A stretch of DNA of 30,076 nt from a virus: UHGV virus genome UHGV-1385480; one strand, given 5' to 3'. Below, piece after piece: positions 945-23,053 of the stretch (the stretch's first letter is position 1; each line of letters begins with the position of its first letter). The translations under genes and the position numbers were made by a program. The notes under the pieces are model-generated. The model was not told the DNA's origin. It did not search any database and was given only the letters and a program-made list of their open reading frames with translations.

Positions 945-1067
945 ATGAAACAATTTCATGATGGCATTTCATCTAAGACATTCAAGAAAGAATATTCGCT
1001 GTGTATTAACTGGATTGATTTGATTGGTGCGGTTGTGTTTGGGCTGATTATTAGCATTAACTTTTAA
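945..1067 (+). CDS. candidate 40-aa membrane peptide
   Basis: ATG 945 after GGGGTG; MKQFHDGISSKTFKKEYSLCINWIDLIGAVVFGLIISINF with a C-terminal hydrophobic helix; ends TAA 1065-1067. Confidence 0.2.
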   Translation: MKQFHDGISSKTFKKEYSLCINWIDLIGAVVFGLIISINF

Positions 1068-1112
1068 TGATATAAATATATCGTAATTCAAACAACAAGA
1101 GGAAATTCTACT

Positions 1113-1532
1113 ATGAAAAAGATTATCGCTGGTGTTGTTCTTGCTCTGGGTTTGGTTGGTGCTGCGAATGCTAATACCTATACCTATTATGTGTGCAATT
1201 CCTACTTCGAATATAAAGGAGATGATACACGCTACCTGAGTGATGGCGACCGTTATTATCATGCGCCGTCTGGCAAATACCGTGGTTTTATCGGTGTAAA
1301 GGTTCGAGTGAATGATGATAATAGTCAATTTGCTTTCAACGATCCGGTATTTGATAAAACAATCAAAAGCCCAAAACTGAAAGAAGATAAGAACGAGAAA
1401 GAAGAATATTATGGTTCCGAAGATGGTAAATCCTACATCAAATATCTGCATTCTGTAGATGGCGCGCCTATATTTGATGTTAAAAAAGGTGATACGTCTT
1501 ATTCCCTGATTAGCTGCCGTGAAATTCTTTAA
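1113..1532 (+). CDS. exported (Sec signal peptide) protein of unknown function, 139 aa
   Basis: N-terminus MKKIIAGVVLALGLVGAANA has an n-h-c signal peptide pattern with an AxA cleavage motif; no lipobox cysteine; AGAGGA SD upstream. Confidence 0.6.
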   Translation: MKKIIAGVVLALGLVGAANANTYTYYVCNSYFEYKGDDTRYLSDGDRYYHAPSGKYRGFIGVKVRVNDDNSQFAFNDPVFDKTIKSPKLKEDKNEKEEYYGSEDGKSYIKYLHSVDGAPIFDVKKGDTSYSLISCREIL

Positions 1533-13862: not shown

Positions 13863-14108
13863 TTATCCTTGAGTTTTAAAGAGTTTTTCTTCTCTAATTA
13901 ATTGGAATTGGCTAGGCTTGAGTTTCTTTGCAGTTTCACGAGTCATTCCTTGCGACGTCATATACATGGAATATTGCAACATCGCATTCTGCATATCATG
14001 AAACGCGGGGCTTTGTGGTTCTAAGTAGGTGTCGAAAATGTATAATTTCCAAAACAGAGTGATTGGCATATTATCCATTTCATCTTTACTAAGCCCCGAT
14101 CGCATCAT
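13863..14108 (-). CDS. tail assembly chaperone, T-like frame (probably expressed as a frameshift extension of the upstream chaperone)
   Basis: No SD before its ATG ATG; frame is -1 relative to the upstream ORF and is open from just inside that ORF's end; canonical G/GT position before the tape measure gene. Confidence 0.4.
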   Translation of the reverse strand: MMRSGLSKDEMDNMPITLFWKLYIFDTYLEPQSPAFHDMQNAMLQYSMYMTSQGMTRETAKKLKPSQFQLIREEKLFKTQG

Positions 14109-14137
14109 TTGCCGAAAATAGAAATTCAGAAGCGGGT

Positions 14138-14446
14138 TTACTTTACCTCGTTTTCAATTACTGCCGGATCTTGCATCAATGACGCTTGAGCAACCAAACC
14201 GATTAATTCACTGCGGACGTTAGTATACAGTGCCTTAACTTGTTCCATAGATTCAAATACCGGTTTACCGTCTTCATCTTCAATACAACGAAGAATCGAA
14301 CGTTCATCACGGTCTTCTTTATCAGTATTGAAAACATGTTCGTTAAATTCTTTTACTGACATAGGGCGAGCATAGAACGTGAATCCGCCGATGGTCAGAG
14401 ATTCACGTTTCGGAGAAAGAGCTTTCAGCATTTCATTAATATTCAT
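14138..14446 (-). CDS. tail assembly chaperone (gpG-like)
   Basis: 102 aa, acidic; AGAGGA SD; position immediately upstream of the T-frame ORF and the tape measure gene. Confidence 0.5.
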   Translation of the reverse strand: MNINEMLKALSPKRESLTIGGFTFYARPMSVKEFNEHVFNTDKEDRDERSILRCIEDEDGKPVFESMEQVKALYTNVRSELIGLVAQASLMQDPAVIENEVK

Positions 14447-14488: not shown

Positions 14489-14995
14489 TTAAGAGATTTT
14501 CAAAGTCTGCTTAGTGCCAGTCTTCTTAATGTTGGTAAGGAAAGCAGCCGGAGGATTGCTTAACCAATAGTAATGAAAACCACTTTGCATACTGTTATAA
14601 GGAACAGTGACAGCAGCACCACCCAAATTAACGGTTATATTCCCCGCTCTACCGTTCTGGAGATATACAGCCATAGTAGGAGTACCGCCATTGAATTGAC
14701 CAACGATAACGCCAACCAGACGCCCTACGCCCACGTTTTCGGGGTTCTCCATAGATCCTTTGCTTTGCATACCGGAAACAGGATAGTTTGAAGCAGTTAC
14801 ACCCCAGTTATTACCCAATGAAGTAGACCACGATGCAGTAGCTACAACCGTATCCATACCACGACCAGCCATTGCCGACATATTACGCGGAGCCGGAACT
14901 TTTAAAGCTGTTAATGCTTCTTTCATCCATCGCTTACCCGTCACCGATACAGCAGATGACCCGATCCAGCCAGGAACTTTAACGACATTTGCCAT
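14489..14995 (-). CDS. hypothetical structural protein (168 aa), Gly/Ala/Ser-rich
   Basis: ATG 14995 with GGAG SD immediately after the tube terminator; no family recognised. Confidence 0.45.
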   Translation of the reverse strand: MANVVKVPGWIGSSAVSVTGKRWMKEALTALKVPAPRNMSAMAGRGMDTVVATASWSTSLGNNWGVTASNYPVSGMQSKGSMENPENVGVGRLVGVIVGQFNGGTPTMAVYLQNGRAGNITVNLGGAAVTVPYNSMQSGFHYYWLSNPPAAFLTNIKKTGTKQTLKIS

Positions 14996-15009: not shown

Positions 15010-15038
15010 TAAAAAAGCCCCACCATTAAGGCAGGGCT
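15010..15038 (-). terminator. intrinsic terminator (copy A) after the tail tube gene
   Basis: Minus-strand RNA AGCCCUGCC-UUAAU-GGUGGGGCU followed by UUUUUU; near-identical to the terminator at 20879-20906. Confidence 0.7.
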
Positions 15039-15043
15039 TAAAA

Positions 15044-15169
15044 TTAATTCTTAGCCTTGCGGCCTCGTTTTGCTGTGGCTTTCGCCGTAACTTCTTCTAC
15101 TTCTGGAATCACCACCGCTTCATGTTCCGGCAGTGGTTCCGGTTCTGGTAAAGGAAGTTCTTCGTTAGT
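15044..15169 (-). other. in-frame 41-codon extension downstream of the tail tube TGA (candidate readthrough product)
   Basis: Directly after TGA-A: TNEELPLPEPEPLPEHEAVVIPEVEEVTAKATAKRGRKAKN then TAA; no ATG or SD of its own; homologous to the extension after the capsid gene. Confidence 0.4.
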
Positions 15170-15643
15170 TCATCCGGCAGTGAAGATTTGCTGTTTCAGC
15201 GGAGCACCATCAACAGCAAAGGTAAACTCTTTCGTTACCACTTCTTCATCGCCACCGTTCATAGCAACTTTAGAAATAAAGCCGTTGAAAGCAGTGCGAA
15301 TACCAGTCTGTTTTCCGGCGTCAACATAGTATTCAACTTTGATTTGAATACGCGTACCGTCTTCGGCAGCCTTTATGAGCTTCTCATGTACCGCATCACC
15401 AGGAATGTAGTTAACGGTCAGAGTCAGATCAGGAACGTTCAGTTTACCTACCAGTTTACGGTTATACTGAGAAGAGAAGGATTTAACTTCTACAGTACCG
15501 CGCTCGATACCAGTTTCAGGAAAACCAGCACACTCTTTAATTTCTTCGTATGCTTCATCGGCAAGGTCGGTGTTAGTGGTATCGGCGTGATAGAACAGAC
15601 TTACCAGACCACCAGTAAAAATATCTTTGAATTGCTGAGACAT
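15170..15643 (-). CDS. major tail (tube) protein, putative
   Basis: 157 aa; AAGGGGT SD; followed by a strong terminator, as expected for an abundant structural protein; upstream of the chaperone pair and tape measure gene; ends in TGA rather than the TAA used by other minus-strand genes. Confidence 0.5.
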   Translation of the reverse strand: MSQQFKDIFTGGLVSLFYHADTTNTDLADEAYEEIKECAGFPETGIERGTVEVKSFSSQYNRKLVGKLNVPDLTLTVNYIPGDAVHEKLIKAAEDGTRIQIKVEYYVDAGKQTGIRTAFNGFISKVAMNGGDEEVVTKEFTFAVDGAPLKQQIFTAG

Positions 15644-15699
15644 AGAATTACCCCTTAATTAAAATTGTTATTACGGGGGAACTAGTCCCCCGACTTTTA

Positions 15700-18600
15700 T
15701 TATTTAGTTGCTTTCAGTTCGGCAATTTCTTTCTGTAATGCTTCGATCTGTGCTTTATATTTGGCGTCCATTTCCTGCATAGCCTTGATGATTAAAGCAT
15801 TGACAGCAGAGTTAGAAATAGTCTTGATTGCTTCTGGATTTTCTGGATCTTCGGTGGATTGAATACCTACTGCTTCCGGCAATACTTTTTCCAGATCCTG
15901 AGCAATAATACCTACTTCGCGTTTAATCACCGTGTCATCGGAAAGAGATTTAACTTTATCGTAGGTGTAGACTTTCAGTGAGTTTACTTTCTCTAATGCA
16001 CCGTCCTGTAATTCTTCCTTGTTAATCTTCAAACGGGAGTCAGAGCGAATGTAAACATCGTTAAAGCTACCGTTACGACCTGCGGTAAAGTCACCAGCAG
16101 CGTTAAAGTCAAAGTTAGTATCGTTAACATGCAGACGAACAAGAGCGTTACCGATAGTACCGCTAGGAACGTGTACACCCATTGCTGCAATGTGATATTT
16201 ACCCCAATGAGTAGCTTTCCAGATGTTATGAGCGGAATCGGTTGATTGAGGGCAATCAACTTGCAAGCCGGATGCACGATCGCGCCAACTAGACCAGCTA
16301 CCACCAGAAACGTTACCACGAATCAAACCTTTATCAGATCCGCCGACGCTACCAGATTCAAGATGAATCATCTTATCCGCAAGTTTCCACGTCTGGGCTT
16401 GTTTCTGACCACGGAAGCGAATAACACCAGCATCATCAGAATACATCAAACCTAGTTCTAATCCAGTTGGATCTCTAAACCAGATATGCTTATTACCAGT
16501 GCGACGAAATTCAATATCAGCACCGTTAAGCGTGATATTACCGCCAGTGTGAATTGCTTGAGGCTTAACAGTACCGTTGATGGCAAACTCAATTGCCGTA
16601 GTACCCGGACCGCCCGGACGTTGGGTATACCAATGCCAACCACTTTCATCACCACATTCTAATACTTGTTTACGACTATCGTTACCCCAAGCACGAATAT
16701 TAAAGCTGGATGTAGCTGTATTTTTACCCCAAGTAAACTTACCACCAACTTCAAGATCGCCTAAGAAGTTTGCTTTAAGAGCACCAGTACCCATCGCACG
16801 CTCTGTGCTAAAATGTCTACCTTGACTATCTTCTAGGTACAAAACGTTATCACGGGCATTATTACTATCACCCCAATGATTAAATCGAATATAATCACGA
16901 GATCCGCTTCTCCCAGCAGAGAAGGTTAAAAACCCTTTCTCGATATATGTATCGCCAGCAAATCGAGCAGCACGGCTATCTCTTTCGAGAACTAATGCGC
17001 CTTCGTTACCATCACCACCTAAAGTAACTTTACCGTTAGTCAAATCGTAAATGAATGGTCGGTTTCCGTTCCAACCACCAAATCTATCATTTTCGGCAGT
17101 AGACAACAGATAAACTTTACCACCATCATTTCGCCAGAATGCACCATACTTACCGTAAATCATACGGAATGCATCAGCGTTAGCGGAATAATATTGACCA
17201 TTGGTATATACAATTTTTGTTTTTCCTGTAGTCAAATTTACTTGTCCACTACCTTCCAAATCAAATGAGTTAGCACCAACATCATTACGCCACACAAAAC
17301 CATCACTAGTACCATCCGCATGACCGATATAACCACTACGTTGGTTTTTACCATCACGACGATCCCACCACGCCATATATGCAGCTTGACCAGTCTGGCG
17401 ATGTAAAGTCATCGCATTACCACTACCGTGCAATTCCATTTTACCAGTAATTACATATCCTTTATAATTACCCGGTATTGCACTATTAGAATCAATTCTA
17501 ATAACTTCTGTAGAATCTGTAGCACCGGTAGCAAGACGATATACAGCACCCTGAACGGTTTCATGCCAAACCATTTCGTTATAGTTGCTACGGAATTTAC
17601 GAATATATTTCCGTCCAGTACCTTTATCGTTACTCAAGTGAACAATGTCATAGCTGTTTTGTGTGTTATCATCAAAACTTAACACACCACGTTTATTTTC
17701 AGTATTAAAAAGAGTTACGTTGCGACCACCGATAACACCAACGGAAGGTTTAATTAACGTGGCTTCCGGCGTATCATAAACCGTCAAACTTACATAAACA
17801 GATTTCCCATATTCGACAATAACGTTATCGGTATAACGCTGATATTTCACGTAGATATCATAGTTATCACCGGAAGTATTGACAGCAAATACCTCAAAAT
17901 CTTTGTTTGTATTTCTACGGTATGCAATTACGTTAAGACCTTTAGGTCTATCGTTACCACTACGCAGAAGAATTTCTACTACGTCAACCTGATCATATGC
18001 CGTAACGTTGTAACCATTACCACCATGAATACGGAAAAACACACTACGCCCGTTTTGTGGAATTGTTGCGGTTGCCAATTTGAAATATGCAGATACGTTT
18101 TCGCTAGAATTGGGAACAGACATAACGACGTTTTTAACAAACATCTTATCAACTTCGGCTTTGGTGTATGCGCCAATCTCGCCAGGAGTCGGCTTATCAC
18201 CTTCGTGATACATCTTATAGCTAAAGTTCTTCTGTCCTTCTCTATCAAAACCATAGGTTTCAACACGAGATCCACCAGACGCATAACGGAAAGTAAATCC
18301 GCGACCGTGCGCTTTACCGGCAGAATGAGGAACATTAAGAGTTAGATCCATGAGTCCATCTTGACCATTGGTACGGAAAGCACCAAAGTAGTTAAGATCT
18401 CTCGCTGTCTGGTCTTCCAAATAGTTAGCTGTCTTGCTTAACAGATACCCACCATGCTTAGTATTGGTATTCTTCTTGATGTAAGCAGCATCGGCACTAC
18501 CTTCAATAGAATCAATTCGCTGGTTAGCTGCGGCAATTGCGGCATCGGCACTGGCCTTGTTATTTGCAACAGTTCTTTCAATGGCTGTCTTATTCGCAGA

Positions 18601-19230
18601 GACCGTACTAGTAAGATTGGTGATCTTCGTGTCCGCATCTTTCTTATTATCCGCTACCGTCTTTTCTATTGCTGATTTATTTGCTGCGACAGTATTCGTT
18701 AAGTTGGTAACGTTGGTATTCGTCTGATCAACTCGCGCATTAATATCTGTCTTGTTCTTGTTAATTGTCGCGTTGATAGTATCGCGGGTTGAAGTAATAG
18801 TCTGATTCAGTTCAGTCTTAGCAGCCGCCAGAGCGTTAGCCGCTTCGGTTTTATTGTTACCTACTGTGGTAGTCAAAGCATCAATTCGCTTGTTGGCTGC
18901 GGTATCGCCAGCAGTGATTGAAGCATTGAGAGTATCACGGGTAGAAGTGATAGTCTGATTAAGTTCAGCTTTAGCCGTAGCCAGATTATTAGCGGCTTCG
19001 GTTTTATTTGCTGAAATGACTTTATCTGTGTTGACCTTGTTGGTGTCTACTTTCGTATTCAGTTCAGCGTGTTTTTCTGGAGAAACACTAATTTGGACTA
19101 CGTTATTATTTTTATCTTTGGTGTAAATCACATGGTCCGCCAGTTGTAAGGCGATCTCGCCCTGTGATAATTGTTCCGGCGTTGGTTTTTTACCAGCCGT
19201 TTGTGTGCGTTTAAATTGGATCGACTGCAT
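15700..19230 (-). CDS. tail fibre protein with C-terminal intramolecular chaperone (peptidase S74-like) domain
   Basis: 1176 aa; N-terminal repeated Asn/Thr/Ala-rich segments; C-terminal ~114 aa starting SDSRLKINKEEL... ending in a coiled coil, matching the self-cleaving chaperone domain of endosialidase / L-shaped fibre proteins. Confidence 0.8.
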   Translation of the reverse strand: MQSIQFKRTQTAGKKPTPEQLSQGEIALQLADHVIYTKDKNNNVVQISVSPEKHAELNTKVDTNKVNTDKVISANKTEAANNLATAKAELNQTITSTRDTLNASITAGDTAANKRIDALTTTVGNNKTEAANALAAAKTELNQTITSTRDTINATINKNKTDINARVDQTNTNVTNLTNTVAANKSAIEKTVADNKKDADTKITNLTSTVSANKTAIERTVANNKASADAAIAAANQRIDSIEGSADAAYIKKNTNTKHGGYLLSKTANYLEDQTARDLNYFGAFRTNGQDGLMDLTLNVPHSAGKAHGRGFTFRYASGGSRVETYGFDREGQKNFSYKMYHEGDKPTPGEIGAYTKAEVDKMFVKNVVMSVPNSSENVSAYFKLATATIPQNGRSVFFRIHGGNGYNVTAYDQVDVVEILLRSGNDRPKGLNVIAYRRNTNKDFEVFAVNTSGDNYDIYVKYQRYTDNVIVEYGKSVYVSLTVYDTPEATLIKPSVGVIGGRNVTLFNTENKRGVLSFDDNTQNSYDIVHLSNDKGTGRKYIRKFRSNYNEMVWHETVQGAVYRLATGATDSTEVIRIDSNSAIPGNYKGYVITGKMELHGSGNAMTLHRQTGQAAYMAWWDRRDGKNQRSGYIGHADGTSDGFVWRNDVGANSFDLEGSGQVNLTTGKTKIVYTNGQYYSANADAFRMIYGKYGAFWRNDGGKVYLLSTAENDRFGGWNGNRPFIYDLTNGKVTLGGDGNEGALVLERDSRAARFAGDTYIEKGFLTFSAGRSGSRDYIRFNHWGDSNNARDNVLYLEDSQGRHFSTERAMGTGALKANFLGDLEVGGKFTWGKNTATSSFNIRAWGNDSRKQVLECGDESGWHWYTQRPGGPGTTAIEFAINGTVKPQAIHTGGNITLNGADIEFRRTGNKHIWFRDPTGLELGLMYSDDAGVIRFRGQKQAQTWKLADKMIHLESGSVGGSDKGLIRGNVSGGSWSSWRDRASGLQVDCPQSTDSAHNIWKATHWGKYHIAAMGVHVPSGTIGNALVRLHVNDTNFDFNAAGDFTAGRNGSFNDVYIRSDSRLKINKEELQDGALEKVNSLKVYTYDKVKSLSDDTVIKREVGIIAQDLEKVLPEAVGIQSTEDPENPEAIKTISNSAVNALIIKAMQEMDAKYKAQIEALQKEIAELKATK
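18540..19010 (-). repeat. imperfect tandem repeats in the tail fibre N-terminal shaft
   Basis: Protein repeats NKTEAAN(N/A)LA(T/A)AK(A/T)ELNQTITSTRDT and TNLT(N/S)TV(A/S)ANK(S/T)AIE(K/R)TVA; the underlying DNA blocks are visibly similar. Confidence 0.5.
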
Positions 19231-19309: not shown

Positions 19310-20143
19310 TTAGTATTCGCCGAAATCGATCCGGTCAGTCTTAGCCACTGCGCCAATTTCGCTAGGTGTCGGTTTCTCATTGGTGGAATATACCTTGATC
19401 CATTCAGAGCGACCGTTTTCCTGAATATTTCGGACGCGTAAACGTGGTGCGCCAGAAGTATTACAGGTTAATTGCCATGCGCCATGCTCATTAGCTTGAA
19501 GGTGAATTAATGATGTGTCGGCTGAATATGGATTACCGCTAGCAGTTCCCTTGTAAGTTACGAAACGGTTTCCGGCTAAAGCATCACTATCAATCGGACC
19601 TGTGAATGGATGTACACCTGCACCTACGCCATAATCCCCGCGACGGAGAAGACGACCCTCCGTTGCAATACCGCGATCCAAAATCCCGCCATCTGGTTCA
19701 AGTTTAAATTCCAGTGTTACAGCTTTGTTATCACTACCACGGGTTTTGTGTGATGTGACGTAAGCATCATAGATGACATAGTAACCAGTGTTAGCAGCAC
19801 TATAGCCAGAGTTCACAACATAGAACATACGGAAGCGTAAAGGTGTTTTATCCTCTACCGCTTTCATCAACATTGCTTGATGTTCGTCATCCAGAACACG
19901 GTTTAACGTGAGTGTTGTCGGTTCCAGTCTACGATAACCAGCAAGTTTCCCCGTAGCGTCCTGATCGTACTCTTCCAGAGTTTCTATCTCTGTGGATTCG
20001 GTTAGCGTAGGAAATGCTGCAACGTTCTCGATGGAACTAAAGCTAGGATCGAAAAAGTCGACCTGATTGTCTATCTGGTTAGAGATCGACACTTCAACAT
20101 GTGACCCCGTGAAAATATCTAAGTTATCTTGTGTAATATTCAT
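19310..20143 (-). CDS. structural protein (277 aa), likely tail fibre-associated
   Basis: C-terminus contains EKPTPSEIGAVAKT, a motif shared with two sites in the adjacent tail fibre; AAGGGGT SD. Confidence 0.4.
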   Translation of the reverse strand: MNITQDNLDIFTGSHVEVSISNQIDNQVDFFDPSFSSIENVAAFPTLTESTEIETLEEYDQDATGKLAGYRRLEPTTLTLNRVLDDEHQAMLMKAVEDKTPLRFRMFYVVNSGYSAANTGYYVIYDAYVTSHKTRGSDNKAVTLEFKLEPDGGILDRGIATEGRLLRRGDYGVGAGVHPFTGPIDSDALAGNRFVTYKGTASGNPYSADTSLIHLQANEHGAWQLTCNTSGAPRLRVRNIQENGRSEWIKVYSTNEKPTPSEIGAVAKTDRIDFGEY

Positions 20144-20878: not shown

Positions 20879-20906
20879 CAAAAAAGCCCCACCGTTAGGC
20901 AGGGCT
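20879..20906 (-). terminator. intrinsic terminator (copy B) after the capsid gene
   Basis: Minus-strand RNA AGCCCUGCC-UAAC-GGUGGGGCU followed by UUUUUU. Confidence 0.7.
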
Positions 20907-20911
20907 AATTA

Positions 20912-21040
20912 TTATTCTTTAGTTTTACGCTGTTTTTTAGCTGTGGCTTTCGCCTTAACCGTCTGGGATTCTTCTTCCGGTTCAGGAATCAGATTTTCTT
21001 CCCCCAAATCGGGGGAAGGTTCAGATGGTTCTACAGGAGT
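20912..21040 (-). other. in-frame 42-codon extension downstream of the capsid TGA (candidate readthrough product)
   Basis: Directly after TGA-A: TPVEPSEPSPDLGEENLIPEPEEESQTVKAKATAKKQRKTKE then TAA; no independent start. Confidence 0.4.
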
Positions 21041-23053
21041 TCATTCAGCGGAGATGTGAAGAACTTTCAGAGCTTCCGGCTGTGCTACAACGTAGTCCAA
21101 ATCTACAAAGATACGAGGCACTACCGCACCACGATCACGGTATGTAGTTAGATCCATATCCAGTTCCAGACCGCCCCACTCACCGATAGTAATACCGGAG
21201 AAGTCACCCAGAACGATGTGGTCTGCCGGAATAACGCCAGAAGTAACTACTTCGTAACCAGCCAGTTTGCCGTTTTCGATGATATAACCGGAAACGCCGT
21301 TATCTTTCAGGGTAGATTCCAGTTCAGCAGCAGTTGCACCGCTCATCGCAAACTTGATCGCCTGAGCAGGAACGCCAGCGTCAGTCAGTGCTGCAATTTC
21401 TTTCAGGAAGTCTTTATAAGAGAAAGCAGCTTTCTTGGTAACGCGGCTAGCGTCTACCAGTTGCTTAACCAGACCAGCCGGACCACGAGCATTTTCTTTA
21501 TCAGACAGAATCAGTTGTTCCAGTTTGATCCGAACAGATTTGTTAATGTGATCGGTGATCAGGGTAGCGATGCCCGGAACGGTTTTCAGCGACTGACGGC
21601 TGATCGGGTTGCCACCAGCAAAAGTTTTCGGAGACAGTTTCACGTTCGAAAATTCCGCATGTGACTCGGGGGCAGCGCCATTTTCGTCAACGAATCCGAA
21701 AGCGTCAACGCTGGATTTAGTCATTTTTGGAATAGCGGTCGGAGAAGTCAAGCCACTATAAACAGTCACCCCGAGGCGGCCTAAAACACTCTGAGGCAAC
21801 AGCATTTCGATGTAGGATTCAGTCATCAGTTTTTCGTCAGTGATAGCAACCAGATTAGCTTTGGTGTTGCCATCAGCAGCAGCACGCATAGCAGCAGCCG
21901 GAACGAATACAGAGCCACCACGAGCAGCACGACCACGCTGCATAGTTGCAGTAGCAGCCATTGCGGAATATTCAGCTTCGTTAGCGCCGAGCACGTCGCC
22001 ATCTACCAGGGAGCGGATTACGTTATTAAGATCGAAAGTTTTTTCCATGATTTGTTCCTTATTAATTTGTTCGTTATTACGTTGAGCATTGGTAATGTTA
22101 TTTAGTGCCTTAGTGCGGAATGCTTCCGGCGTAATTTCTTTATTTGCCAATGCGCGTTTAAATTCTTCATCGTCTTCGTTAATATTTAACTCGCGTGCAA
22201 TTTCGCGAATTTCTAATTCGTCTTCTTCGGAACGTTCAGCCACTTCCTCGGTTTTTTCTTCTTCAACCGGAGCAGCTTCACGTTCTTCTTTTACTTCTTC
22301 TGTTTCCCGAACAGTTGAACTATCATCATCAACACTTTCAGGATGTTCAGCGTCTTTTCCGTCTTCGAGATTTTCATCTTCTTTATTCTCTTCAACTTGG
22401 CGCTCTTGAGTTTCTTCAACTTCCGGTTCTTTATTTTCTTCTACCGGAGTTTCTTCAACCTGAGCGGATTCTTGTTCTTCTTTGATTTCTTCAATTTGTT
22501 CTTTAGTCATATCGCGTTTAGCCTCCAAATTAACTGTGATAGTATTTAGAGAGCGATTTAAACCGACCGAATCGTCCGCCGGGACCGTAACAAAACTTAA
22601 TTCGAAAGGAACAAACTTAGTAACAATCAATTGTCCTTTGGCATAATCGATGTGATATTCTTTAATGTCATAACCGACAGAAATTTTTTCCATCGTACCT
22701 TCAATGACTTTATTACGAATATCATTAGCCAAAGTGCCATGCTTAGAGAATCTAACGGTCGCACGGCCTACTTTATCCGCATCGATTCGAGCGTTACAAA
22801 CGACACCTAAATGATTATCGAAATTATGATTAAACAGCAACGGAGCGTTATTATTCAGACGAGACAGATCAACCGCTTCCGGTGTATGTACCAGAATTTC
22901 ATCTAATACCACCATTTCTTGATTTTGCTCATCCCAGAATTGGCGCTGATAAGGCTGTTCACTGGAGAAAGCAATTTCAAATTCGTATTGATCGTTATGC
23001 CCTTCGTTAATAACTCCACCGTAACCGTTAAGTTCGCGGCGAAATTTAAGCAT
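21041..23053 (-). CDS. prohead protease - acidic scaffold-like linker - HK97-fold major capsid protein, single fused ORF
   Basis: N-terminal ~170 aa with LFNHN...LG and ELSFVTVPADDSVGL motifs typical of HK97-type prohead proteases; ~160 aa Glu-rich low-complexity middle; C-terminal 335 aa with capsid-like composition; ends in TGA. Confidence 0.75.
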   Translation of the reverse strand: MLKFRRELNGYGGVINEGHNDQYEFEIAFSSEQPYQRQFWDEQNQEMVVLDEILVHTPEAVDLSRLNNNAPLLFNHNFDNHLGVVCNARIDADKVGRATVRFSKHGTLANDIRNKVIEGTMEKISVGYDIKEYHIDYAKGQLIVTKFVPFELSFVTVPADDSVGLNRSLNTITVNLEAKRDMTKEQIEEIKEEQESAQVEETPVEENKEPEVEETQERQVEENKEDENLEDGKDAEHPESVDDDSSTVRETEEVKEEREAAPVEEEKTEEVAERSEEDELEIREIARELNINEDDEEFKRALANKEITPEAFRTKALNNITNAQRNNEQINKEQIMEKTFDLNNVIRSLVDGDVLGANEAEYSAMAATATMQRGRAARGGSVFVPAAAMRAAADGNTKANLVAITDEKLMTESYIEMLLPQSVLGRLGVTVYSGLTSPTAIPKMTKSSVDAFGFVDENGAAPESHAEFSNVKLSPKTFAGGNPISRQSLKTVPGIATLITDHINKSVRIKLEQLILSDKENARGPAGLVKQLVDASRVTKKAAFSYKDFLKEIAALTDAGVPAQAIKFAMSGATAAELESTLKDNGVSGYIIENGKLAGYEVVTSGVIPADHIVLGDFSGITIGEWGGLELDMDLTTYRDRGAVVPRIFVDLDYVVAQPEALKVLHISAE

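Follow-up and report, generated by a model that had tools for sequence, protein, structure and literature searches.

A candidate UGA-readthrough cassette behind the major capsid and tail tube genes of an Escherichia coli prophage

We find a compact sequence module, a candidate portable recoding cassette, twice in one prophage, where one copy follows the major tail tube gene and the other the major capsid gene. Both begin with a UGA stop followed by A, and a 10-nt spacer, an extended RNA stem-loop and a mini-hairpin with a GNRA tetraloop come next. The frame of the upstream gene stays open across these elements for 28 to 45 codons, depending on the haplotype, up to a UAA that adjoins an intrinsic terminator. 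The cassette has a conserved anatomy, a coding signature in the frame of the upstream gene, and an RNA structure with covarying base pairs. Programmed readthrough of the UGA, which would yield minor, C-terminally extended capsid and tube subunits, is the probable explanation of this pattern on the comparative sequence evidence.

The prophage sequence is the 30,076-nucleotide virus genome UHGV-1385480 (hereafter, the window). Both genes and all parts of their cassettes lie on its minus strand. The tail tube gene (15173..15643) encodes a 157-aa protein that matches PHROG 158, “major tail protein” (E = 7.5e-22), and reaches the Pfam family Phage_TTP_11 at a score just below the cut-off (E = 1.8e-6; 28.1 bits versus 28.4). 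An AlphaFold2 model of the protein (pLDDT 74) resembles the lambda tail tube (8k36_A; E = 2.6e-7, 147 columns), and Foldseek ranks lambda tail tube structures highest for this model (E = 2.6e-7 to 1e-6, 147 to 149 columns). The gene order fits this assignment, with the tail assembly chaperone and tape measure genes directly downstream. A search of the chaperone gene for a canonical X XXY YYZ slippery site was negative.

The tube gene ends in TGA (15170..15172), the proposed readthrough site, and the next base is A (15169). An earlier note on this DNA, made from the letters alone, had described this ending and called its context leaky; the literature on the +4A effect bears this out (PMC5289835), since UGA leaks more than the other stops in E. 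coli, where tRNA-Trp misreads it, above all before A (PMC5289835, PMC10570021). As the note had also stated, 41 in-frame codons (TNEELPLPEPEPLPEHEAVVIPEVEEVTAKATAKRGRKAKN; 15047..15169) lead from the TGA to a TAA (15044..15046). They encode an acidic Pro/Glu-rich linker and a basic tip (TAKATAKRGRKAKN). The description of this peptide as a positively charged tag applies to the tip only: the extension is acidic overall (9 Glu versus 6 Lys/Arg) and basic only in its last 14 residues. A strong intrinsic terminator (15015..15039; a 10-bp stem with 6 G-C pairs and a T-run) does follow, although its hairpin begins 4 nt past the TAA and not 5 nt, as had been thought. The extension had further been said to hold neither a start codon nor a Shine-Dalgarno sequence. 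It does contain two in-frame GTG codons (15115..15110; codons 19 and 20), and no Shine-Dalgarno-like sequence is found upstream of them.

In a single sequence, an open frame behind the tube stop is not unusual, since 6 of the 28 genes in the window have an in-frame open stretch of at least 41 codons past their stop. The TGA at the end of the tube gene is itself unusual, because 25 of the 28 genes stop at TAA and only three at TGA. Within the structural module, the capsid and tube genes are the only ones that end in TGA. The third TGA-ended gene of the window (ORF 969..1451) is followed by unrelated sequence and has no family match, and we place it outside this system.

The major head gene (21044..23053) encodes a 670-aa protease-capsid fusion that matches PHROG 617, “major head protein” (E = 2.7e-92), and also PHROG 4523, “major head and protease protein”. 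Its leaky-type stop (TGA; 21041..21043) is followed by ACT, and the frame continues for 42 codons (TPVEPSEPSPDLGEENLIPEPEEESQTVKAKATAKKQRKTKE; 20915..21040) that are homologous to the tube extension. This capsid extension ends in …VKAKATAKKQRKTKE and is closed by tandem stops, TAA TAA (20909..20914), after which comes an intrinsic terminator (20885..20906) near-identical to that of the tube cassette. The block GCGAAAGCCACAGC(A/T)AAA is common to both copies. Read across the two stops (X marks the UGA position), the sequences are …QQIFTAG-X-TNEELPLPEPEPLPEHE… and …VLHISAE-X-TPVEPSEPSPDLGEE…. Neither this homologous TGA-ACT cassette nor the conserved RNA structure 10 nt past the UGA, described below, figured in the earlier note.

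The tube cassette is conserved among relatives far beyond chance. TGA-ACT is kept in 45 of 45 extension-bearing tube loci, which cover 40 distinct tube sequences, and stays fixed while the codon before it varies (GGA, GCT, GGT, TCT). Behind the capsid gene, TGA-A(C/A)T is kept in all 37 loci (the window and 36 relatives). In contrast, the 25 tube relatives that lack an extension all stop at TAA or TAA TAA, and the terminator follows directly, at a distance of 6 to 12 nt. Extensions comprise 36, 39, 40 or 41 codons after the tube gene and 28, 33, 42, 43, 44 or 45 codons after the capsid gene, and every length class is in frame. Relatives with an out-of-frame extension, which the earlier note had named as refuting its reading, were not found among the 45 extension-bearing tube loci. 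Of the six frames, only the continuation of the upstream gene is open in 22 of 22 tube and 18 of 18 capsid haplotypes, which represent about five or six independent sequence classes, so that effective sample sizes are smaller than such counts suggest. The +1 and +2 frames hold stops in all haplotypes.

We also find that the cassette behaves as a unit. It follows the tube gene with or without a downstream gp38 gene (L045, L051 and L053), and it is present after the capsid gene in phages whose tube gene has none (for example L070 and L028, which lie on one contig). It even occurs behind a capsid that is only 37% identical, where the similarity begins at the TGA. Many relatives have no tube extension; thus, this extension is not essential. 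Among 5,426 complete E. coli genomes, 54 (about 1%) carry the cassette, and the NCBI PGAP annotation leaves both extension stretches empty. Of the carrier strains, E. coli H2 (NZ_CP028733) matches the capsid cassette at 100% identity and PI7 (NZ_CP074033) the tube region at 96%. Searches of 50,697 phage records (megablast and tblastn) found no close relative of the tube, the best match being phage DCP80 at 44% identity; T4-like phages matched in the fibre gene alone. The tube alignment also had no match when one genome per species was scanned.

The polymorphisms of the tube extension (22 haplotypes) carry the signature of a coding sequence. In the frame of the tube gene, 28 are synonymous, 27 are non-synonymous and none affects a stop, while the same polymorphisms read in the shifted sense frames give 9, 39 and 7 or 13, 33 and 9, respectively. 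This represents a significant synonymous excess (28 of 55 versus an expected 25%; binomial test, P = 3e-5), which is already visible before the internal GTG, over the first 18 codons (13 synonymous versus 9 non-synonymous). The capsid extension by itself has a weak excess (17 of 49). The antisense frame that shares wobble positions with the sense frame has a similar synonymous fraction (25 of 55), because those positions coincide; it is set aside solely on account of the stops that some haplotypes carry in it. An antisense ORF at 15057..15329 (+) was rejected as a gene: it is a shadow frame, and each antisense frame has stops in several haplotypes. A dN/dS-type comparison, which had also been advised, gives a pN/pS of 0.30 to 0.45 for the tube extension (pN 0.03 to 0.07), a ratio that is confounded because pS is lower in the extension (0.10 to 0.16) than in the tube gene (0.31 to 0.33), so that RNA-level constraint or gene conversion contributes to the conservation.

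The composition of the extensions is likewise kept: an acidic Pro/Glu-rich linker, the motif (T/K)AKATAK, and a Lys/Arg-rich tip that is maintained through different codons (KRGRKAKN, KRGRKSRK, KKQRKTKE and KKVGRPPKAK). The extension peptide has no match among 5.8 billion proteins, and no Pfam domain was found in the extensions, which are low-complexity sequences of 28 to 45 residues. The AT-hook family (PF02178) does not match the window tips KRGRKAKN and KKQRKTKE. Some relatives’ capsid extensions, with the tip KKVGRPPKAK, score 14.2 to 14.7 bits (E = 0.03 to 0.04) against a cut-off of 17.4 bits, and we treat this possible AT-hook likeness as a lead only. A 198-aa “fused” homologue (P0002) seemed to be a natural variant with a sense codon in place of the stop. 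At the DNA level the position reads TGA, and we dropped the homologue as evidence because its W comes from a gene call with genetic code 4.

Both cassettes share an RNA structure whose position relative to the stop is fixed. Exactly 10 nt separate the UGA from the start of the helix, and 2 nt separate the end of the helix from the mini-hairpin. In the tube cassette, the spacer (ACUAACGAAG; 15160..15169) is followed by an extended stem-loop (15089..15159), which the centroid fold closes with the helix AACUUC/GAAGUU, and by the mini-hairpin GGC-GAAA-GCC (15077..15086). In the capsid cassette, folding and covariation define the corresponding stem-loop (20957..21030), again 10 nt past the UGA, and the mini-hairpin GGC-GAAA-GCC (20945..20954). 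The spacer measures 10 nt in all 40 tube and capsid haplotypes.

Minimum free energy folds of single tube extensions looked inconsistent from one haplotype to the next, and the pairing became visible only once the sequences were anchored to the UGA and the mini-hairpin. In this register, 89.7% of cells are paired, compared with 27 to 47% in slid registers, and changes on both sides occur in 7 of 12 pairs. None of 500 shuffles matched the observed pairing or covariation score. The anchored helix of the tube cassette is paired in 86% of cells, with compensatory changes at six of its nine pairs across the tube and capsid cassettes. The mini-hairpin is paired in 100% of cells among 30 distinct sequences, two of which have a compensatory C-G to A-U change (GGAGAAAUCC). 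The fold of the capsid cassette is exceptionally stable (−42.4 kcal/mol; z = −4.82; 0 of 200 shuffles as stable), and that of the tube cassette has a z-score of −2.1. Three recombinant tube haplotypes (L016, L064 and L062) have two mismatches in the closing helix. The apical parts differ among the sequence classes and include a GAAA tetraloop on an 11-bp stem, multi-branched domains and a GAUUU loop. Rfam searches with both cassettes returned no significant family.

From these features we infer the occurrence and rate of readthrough, the inserted amino acid, a stimulatory RNA and the function of the tail. Most ribosomes would stop at the UGA and release the normal subunit. A minority would decode the UGA with a near-cognate tRNA, most likely Trp-tRNA, and move on to the UAA, so that the capsid or tube subunit would gain a C-terminal extension. 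How often this happens is plausibly set by the RNA structure that begins 10 nt downstream. Readthrough at the tube UGA had been the central idea of the earlier note, and the invariant stop, the kept frame and the synonymous excess favor it. The window contains no tRNA gene, and ARAGORN called no UGA-reading tRNA in the scanned partial loci of relatives. Its 91-nt tRNA-Gln/Glu calls there are probably false positives, because they are on the other strand, have no equivalent in the window and do not have an anticodon that reads UGA. Termination at UGA is efficient in natural E. coli strains; thus, the extended form could be very rare.

The C-termini of the capsid and tube proteins are both expected to point outward, so that each virion would present the same flexible tail on a few of its subunits. 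We suggest that this tail probably serves weak electrostatic adhesion or the docking of a shared partner. Exposure on the tail surface, which the earlier note had thought plausible, is backed by analogy with lambda gpV, whose tube-domain fold spans the whole tube protein. Because the tube model matches gpV over its whole length, its C-terminus would lie where the gpV linker to the external domain begins. We know of no established mechanism in bacteria for structure-stimulated readthrough by ordinary tRNAs. Only tentatively, and as a proposal that is rather doubtful in its full form, we suggest that the cassette is a self-contained, transferable readthrough module whose RNA structure actively stimulates the decoding of UGA by ordinary tRNAs on bacterial ribosomes.

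The alternative that survives best, though we consider it unlikely, is that the UGA is an ordinary stop and that two highly expressed genes have each received a copy of a structured, non-coding 3' UTR element with an incidental open frame, for instance an mRNA stabilizer, a processing site or an accessory to the terminator. Such an element would explain why the RNA structure is conserved with compensatory changes, why the capsid copy has so low a folding energy (z = −4.8), why the mini-hairpin is the best-conserved nucleotide block, and why the cassette always adjoins a terminator. It is also consistent with synonymous sites that are more conserved in the extension than in the tube gene, and with the weak synonymous excess of the capsid extension. 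However, an incidental frame is difficult to reconcile with ten length classes that all differ by multiples of three, with a single frame out of six that is open throughout the 40 haplotypes, or with the absence of stop-creating polymorphisms in that frame (compared with 7 to 9 in the shifted sense frames). The synonymous excess of the tube extension (P = 3e-5) points the same way, as does the 3' tail, which lies outside the helices and varies in nucleotide sequence yet always encodes a Lys/Arg-rich tip. Furthermore, TGA has drifted to TAA in 0 of 82 loci, though TAA ends 25 of the 28 window genes and is the stop of all extension-less relatives.

Less likely again is that readthrough occurs for regulation and that the peptide is secondary. 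Ribosomes that reach the UAA, 4 to 8 nt from the terminator stem, would disturb the terminator hairpin or mRNA decay, and the readthrough rate would thus set downstream transcription. Both cassettes do stand where expression must drop from a major subunit to minor proteins, and the distal stop always adjoins a terminator, of either of two types. The stops of extension-less relatives are also close to a terminator (6 to 12 nt). A regulatory spacer would nevertheless have no need of a conserved amino acid composition, whereas the extensions conserve peptide features (a basic tip through different codons, TAKATAK, and a pN/pS below 1).

Two further alternatives seem to us very unlikely. A separate, unfused small peptide could be made from the internal GTG, from another start or by re-initiation after the UGA. 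All tube haplotypes keep at least one in-frame GTG, as at 15115..15110 in the window, and the long capsid class has an in-frame TTG. No in-frame start is common to all classes, however: the short capsid class has TCG or TTA in place of TTG and GCG in place of GTG, and the tube GTG codons have no Shine-Dalgarno-like sequence before them. In addition, conservation starts right at the TGA, and the frame and the synonymous excess (13 versus 9) are kept in the 18 codons that precede the GTG. Equally improbable is a decaying relic, in which a longer ancestral tube or capsid gene gained a nonsense mutation and left a remnant without meaningful expression. Tails fused without a stop are indeed seen in an Edwardsiella tube (175 aa; a short C-terminal tail ending …NVIPEAVAAKEK), in Salmonella tubes (…GSRK or …GRK) and in distant capsids (…PAEAPAEAKAGK). 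But a relic would need the same “mutation” at the junction in three different genes, and would have to persist over 40 haplotypes (tube pS about 0.3) with no frameshifts, in-frame stops or loss. Least probable of all, to the point of being hardly credible, is selenocysteine insertion with the hairpin in the role of a bacterial SECIS element: there is an in-frame UGA, and the helix begins at the 11th nucleotide after it in all 40 haplotypes, the spacing reported for the minimal E. coli SECIS, but the apical regions are unrelated between classes, so that there is no conserved SelB-binding loop, and no Rfam family is significant.

By analogy, programmed UGA readthrough at these cassettes is a variant of known recoding, as represented by the Qβ A1 protein and by frameshift-extended capsid and tail proteins. 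To our knowledge, bacteria and their DNA phages offer very few well-documented cases of programmed stop-codon readthrough, Qβ A1 being the textbook one, and wherever tailed phages are known to make two forms of a capsid or tail protein, they do so by frameshifting. Qβ is a single-stranded RNA phage, and the A1 extension is a folded domain of nearly 200 residues. As in Qβ, low-frequency readthrough by a normal host tRNA is proposed here at the UGA that ends a major virion subunit gene, with a C-terminally extended minor virion form as the predicted product; both hosts are E. coli. In Qβ, about 5% of coat gene translation reads through the UGA, and the A1 extension is required for infectious particles (PMC7026636). 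In contrast, the host of our cassettes is a double-stranded DNA prophage, the extensions are 28 to 45 low-complexity residues, one cassette is used on two genes with a conserved RNA structure 10 nt downstream of the stop, and the tube extension is dispensable in many relatives.

Extended capsid and tail proteins produced by frameshifting are known from several phages (PMC5009743, PMC6316719). In the Listeria phages PSA, A118 and A500, the capsid (Cps) and tail (Tsh) genes are both recoded (PMC5009743), as the window cassettes would be. SPP1 tails contain gp17.1 and gp17.1* in a 3:1 ratio, and the phage can do without the extension (PMC6316719). These systems, together with Lactobacillus phage A2 and T3/T7 gp10B, make two forms of a protein through recoding at the 3' end of its gene, and the longer form is a minority on the virion surface; we propose the same here. 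They use +1 or −1 shift sites, whereas the window extensions are in the zero frame behind a stop and thus need no shift site. Their extensions are folded Ig-like or FN3 domains of roughly 50 to 90 residues, whereas those in the window are short linkers with no domain match. The window tube also resembles lambda gpV in its tube-domain fold over the whole 157 aa and in an accessory C-terminal appendage, despite a sequence identity of about 14 to 16%. Every gpV subunit carries a fused Ig-like domain; unlike that domain, the window appendage lies behind a stop codon and is unstructured.

The closest parallel in layout comes from eukaryotic RNA viruses. Firth et al. are said to have described, in 2011, extended 3' stem-loops that stimulate readthrough in alphaviruses, a coltivirus and others, reportedly at a UGA in a weak context, with a spacer of about 8 to 10 nt and a long, phylogenetically conserved stem-loop. 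The window cassettes have the same order of UGA, spacer and stem-loop. The viral signals act on eukaryotic ribosomes and eRF1, whereas the window cassettes are bacterial and their stimulatory role is putative.

If programmed readthrough does occur, the cassette would extend the set of recoding signals for bacterial ribosomes by one that brings its own RNA structure and serves both major virion proteins. Its presence in about 1% of complete E. coli genomes makes it easy to obtain. Should the more tentative proposal of a transferable, RNA-stimulated module also hold, the structure-stimulated readthrough signals known from eukaryotic RNA viruses would have their first counterpart in bacteria. The module would then stand behind at least three structural genes, from two unrelated-looking capsid lineages and the tail tube, and head and tail would show the same polycationic tip, AT-hook-like in some variants, at a set stoichiometry. 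These results suggest that virion protein isoforms escape genome annotation, and they raise the question of what role a shared tail, with an acidic linker and a basic tip, may play on the head as well as the tail of a virion.

We find that the gene at 15173-15643 is a genuine tail tube gene, because its 157-aa product matches PHROG 158 'major tail protein' (E 7.5e-22) and Pfam Phage_TTP_11 (E 1.8e-6), and its AlphaFold2 model (pLDDT 74) matches lambda tail-tube structures over its full length (8k36_A, E 2.6e-7). The ORF runs on the minus strand from 15643 to 15173. As the earlier note described, it stops at TGA (15172..15170) followed by A, and its frame stays open for 41 further codons (TNEELPLPEPEPLPEHEAVVIPEVEEVTAKATAKRGRKAKN) up to a TAA at 15046..15044. 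An intrinsic terminator hairpin (15039..15015; 10-bp stem and T-run) directly follows, as that note had stated, at a distance of 4 nt rather than 5. The extension contains no Shine-Dalgarno sequence, also as claimed, but it does contain two in-frame GTG codons (15115..15110), contrary to the claim that start codons were absent. The supposed positive charge is confined to a basic tip; the extension as a whole is net acidic. Between the fibre and tube genes, just 5' of the ribosome-binding site that serves the tube gene, is a G+C-rich hairpin (CGGGGGAACTAGTCCCCCG; 15674-15692).

The element, a ~35-kb prophage, resides in E. coli chromosomes; all genes relevant here are on the minus strand. Terminase, portal, protease-capsid fusion, and connector genes come first, followed by a 277-aa tube paralogue, a T4 gp37-like fibre gene, the tube gene, and a gp38-like adhesin gene, and finally by genes for the tail assembly chaperone, the 810-aa tape measure, and the tail tip. 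The paralogue (19310-20143), just upstream of the long fibre gene, is 30% identical to the tube over its N-terminal 163 aa (E 8e-17), with no family match for its extra C-terminal ~115 aa; the protein possibly forms a specialised tube-like ring or attaches the fibre. The 1176-aa fibre protein (15700-19230) has Gp34_trimer and Peptidase_S74 domains, and its gene shares 75-81% DNA identity with gp37 of RB49-like phages. The gp38-like gene (14489-14995) is inserted between the tube and chaperone genes, and T4-type fibre genes sit within a lambda-like siphovirus tail module. In the chaperone region (13863-14446), the gene for the 102-aa chaperone is followed by a -1 frame ORF that opens ~4 codons upstream of the chaperone stop, the usual G/GT arrangement; a search for a canonical X XXY YYZ slippery heptamer gave none. 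Among the phage records searched, no cultured phage is closely related.

For a single sequence, the open tube extension is no more than chance: at least 41 open codons follow the stop in 6 of the 28 window genes, and an open frame alone is unremarkable. The TGA stop is unusual, though, and a stop-codon census of these genes (TAA 25, TGA 3) revealed what the earlier note did not contain. Within the structural module, only the genes for the virion's two main components, capsid and tube, end in TGA, each with the same cassette of UGA-A, structured RNA, extension, stop, and terminator. The major head gene (670 aa; 21044-23053, minus strand; PHROG 617, E 2.7e-92) is followed at 20885-21043 by TGA-ACT, 42 in-frame codons (TPVEPSEPSPDLGEENLIPEPEEESQTVKAKATAKKQRKTKE), TAA TAA, and a terminator (20906..20885) nearly identical to that of the tube. 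The extensions themselves are homologous: in each, an acidic Pro/Glu linker, an (I/V)IPE motif, and (T/K)AKATAK precede a Lys/Arg tip, and the cassettes have the nucleotide block GCGAAAGCCACAGC(A/T)AAA in common. The third TGA ends a 160-aa minus-strand ORF without a family match (969-1451), with TGA-A and 30 in-frame codons after it; as a third cassette copy it was rejected, its 3' sequence being unrelated. The phage family is present in 54 of 5,426 complete E. coli genomes, 47 of which have the capsid cassette region at ≥80% coverage and 20 the tube cassette region.

Tube loci with the extension were gathered from IMG/VR, metagenomes, and RefSeq E. coli chromosomes (n = 45; 40 distinct tube sequences, 84-100% identical as protein, and 22 extension haplotypes). 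All 45 have TGA-ACT, while the preceding codon varies (GGA, GCT, GGT, or TCT). Extension lengths are 36, 39, 40, or 41 codons, and therefore all indels are multiples of three; no related genome has the extension out of frame (45/45 in frame). Among the six frames, the tube-continuing frame alone is open in all 22 haplotypes, and no antisense frame is open in every one. Polymorphisms in the two alignable classes comprise 28 synonymous, 27 non-synonymous, and 0 stop-affecting changes in this frame, against 9/39/7 and 13/33/9 in the shifted sense frames (binomial P = 3e-5 for the synonymous excess against 25% synonymous). One antisense frame gives a similar synonymous fraction because its wobble positions coincide with those of the sense frame. 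Summed over pairs, pS and pN are 0.325 and 0.054 in the tube gene and 0.155 and 0.069 in the extension (0.10 and 0.03 in its main class). In terms of the dN/dS check that the earlier note had proposed, pN/pS is 0.30-0.45, and conservation of the extension thus greatly exceeds that of neutral sites. The PGAP (NCBI) annotation contains nothing for the tube extension stretch. A 198-aa database protein reading tube-Trp-extension (P0002; ENA ERZ27280761, locus L002) was rejected as a sense variant: its DNA has TGA, and it is therefore an artefact of a genetic code 4 gene call. Such entries can mimic sense-codon variants.

The capsid cassette behaves similarly. The capsid stop never departs from TGA-A(C/A)T, either in the window or in 32 IMG/VR relatives (C-terminus 85-99% identical; 18 haplotypes), and the extension, of 28, 42, 43, 44, or 45 codons, is in frame every time. 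The capsid-continuing frame is the only one open in all 18 haplotypes. The synonymous excess is weak here (17/49); the GRPP motif of some haplotypes has three synonymous changes versus one replacement. Four RefSeq genomes match the capsid cassette pattern. In one of them (L158; NZ_CM177021.1, E. coli RMDEC332, 805-915), the cassette follows a capsid only 37% identical to that of the window, and its 33-codon extension ends KRGRKPKE before TGA TAA. Its nucleotide similarity to the window sets in at the stop codon, which places a mosaic junction exactly at the UGA. Some phages have the capsid cassette without the tube cassette, for example on the one contig that holds loci L070 and L028.

We compared 25 extension-less tube genes (44-74% identical; E. 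coli, Salmonella, Edwardsiella, Hafniaceae, and phage DCP80). In all 25, the stop is TAA or TAA TAA immediately 5' of a terminator, followed by the chaperone gene. Thus TGA occurs with the extension and TAA without it, with zero exceptions, although few evolutionary events may underlie this association. Capsids 44-46% identical likewise have TAA stops, some with short fused tails (e.g., …PAEAPAEAKAGK), and some distant tubes have short fused C-terminal tails with no intervening stop and basic ends (…GSRK, …GRK, …NVIPEAVAAKEK). Three relatives (L045, L051, and L053) lack the gp38 gene and have a different terminator, but keep the extension, which therefore goes with the tube gene rather than with the gp38 insertion. 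The DCP80 record (PQ671644.1; locus L001, 5989-9655) is 141 kb, filed under Straboviridae/Tevenvirinae, and annotated only as 'hypothetical protein'. Its lambda-like tube homologue (44% identity) ends TAA TGA without an extension and has two small ORFs and then an 805-aa ORF downstream, which is siphovirus-type tail synteny.

Both cassettes fold more stably than shuffled sequences (capsid: z = -4.82, 0/200 shuffles equally stable; tube: z = -2.10, 7/200). A helix search anchored 5' on the UGA and 3' on the block ACGGCGAAAGCC found a 5' arm that begins exactly 10 nt past the UGA in 40/40 haplotypes, and a 3' arm that stops 2 nt short of a GGC-GAAA-GCC mini-hairpin, enclosing a domain of 36 to 84 nt. 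The helix sequence is class-specific with pairing retained: AACUUC/GAAGUU, AACAACC/GGUUGUU, AACC-UCUG/CAGA-GGUU, and AAUUGCCGGAA/UUCCGGUAGUU, the last with a compensated variant (AAUCGCC…/…GGUGAUU). Among 30 distinct sequences, which represent only ~5-6 independent classes and whose Glu-rich and Pro/Leu-rich codons are partly self-complementary, 89.7% of helix cells are paired, versus 27-47% when the partner is slid 1-3 columns. Two-sided changes occur in 7/12 helix pairs, and the covariation score is 0.350 versus 0.138 in shuffles, 0/500 of which reach the observed values. In the mini-hairpin, two sequences replace a C-G pair by a compensatory A-U pair, and three recombinant tube haplotypes have two helix mismatches each. 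No Rfam family matched the cassettes, and a 21-nt core pattern is confined within IMG/VR to this phage family, at 1-2 copies per genome. On these comparative grounds, we show protein-level constraint on the cassette, with RNA covariation. We also show that a fixed layout (UGA-A, 10-nt spacer, extended stem-loop, GNRA hairpin, basic-tail coding sequence, UAA, and terminator) recurs as one conserved unit after three different genes, with the upstream reading frame kept.

UGA readthrough is the probable route by which both extensions would be made, and these comparative patterns support it well. Its purpose might be regulatory, since ribosomes that pass the UGA would reach a stop adjoining the terminator; this fits the cassette anatomy. 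A purely non-coding RNA element would account for the structure, but not for the fact that ten length classes all stay in frame, that only one frame is open throughout, that synonymous changes are in excess, or that the basic tip is conserved. Independent initiation is disfavoured: no start codon is kept across classes, and constraint starts at the UGA. The 18 codons 5' of the internal GTG already have 13 synonymous versus 9 non-synonymous changes, which argues for translation entry at the UGA rather than at an internal start. The apical loops of the different classes bear no relation to one another, which makes decoding as selenocysteine unlikely. Persistence behind three genes and across 40 haplotypes is incompatible with the cassette being a decaying relic. 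Neither the window nor the scanned partial loci of relatives yielded a suppressor tRNA. ARAGORN called a 91-nt 'tRNA-Gln(ttg)' or 'tRNA-Glu(ttc)' in IMG/VR relatives (L112, L119, L128, L129, L133, L146, and L149), ~550 nt from the capsid cassette and on the opposite strand where checked; these calls are probably false positives and have no counterpart in the window.

Under readthrough, most ribosomes would terminate at the UGA and a minority would decode it, most likely with Trp-tRNA, yielding capsid and tube subunits longer by 29-46 residues. How often this happens may be tuned by the RNA structure, whose closest analogues are the 3' stem-loops at readthrough sites of eukaryotic viruses, reportedly described by Firth et al. 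in 2011, a paper that PMC5009743 cites. In E. coli, Trp-tRNA rivals RF2 at UGA, notably before A (PMC10570021; PMC5289835). The cassette is functionally similar to Qβ A1, made by ~5% UGA readthrough of the coat gene (PMC7026636). It also resembles the longer versions of the main capsid and tail proteins that other phages make by frameshifting: SPP1 gp17.1* (+1 shift, 3:1 ratio, non-essential extension; PMC6316719), the products of Listeria PSA/A118/A500, in which the capsid and tail genes are both recoded, and the cases of Lactobacillus A2 and T3/T7 (PMC5009743). It falls outside that class because its extension is in the zero frame and has no folded domain. We found no report in the open-access literature of stop-codon readthrough in a tailed-phage tail tube or capsid gene.

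In lambda gpV, a linker leads from the tube domain to an external domain, and the modelled tube C-terminus corresponds to the start of that linker. C-terminal extensions of HK97-fold capsids, such as T7 gp10B, are displayed externally. By analogy, both tails should therefore face outward. Assuming 1-5% readthrough, ~180 tube subunits (as the 810-aa tape measure implies), and a T = 7 capsid of ~415 subunits, we roughly estimate that each virion would bear anything from a handful of tails to a few tens. Some capsid variants end KKVGRPPKAK, a sub-threshold AT-hook match (E 0.03). Our best guess is that the tails would provide weak electrostatic adhesion to polyanionic surfaces, or dock a common partner.
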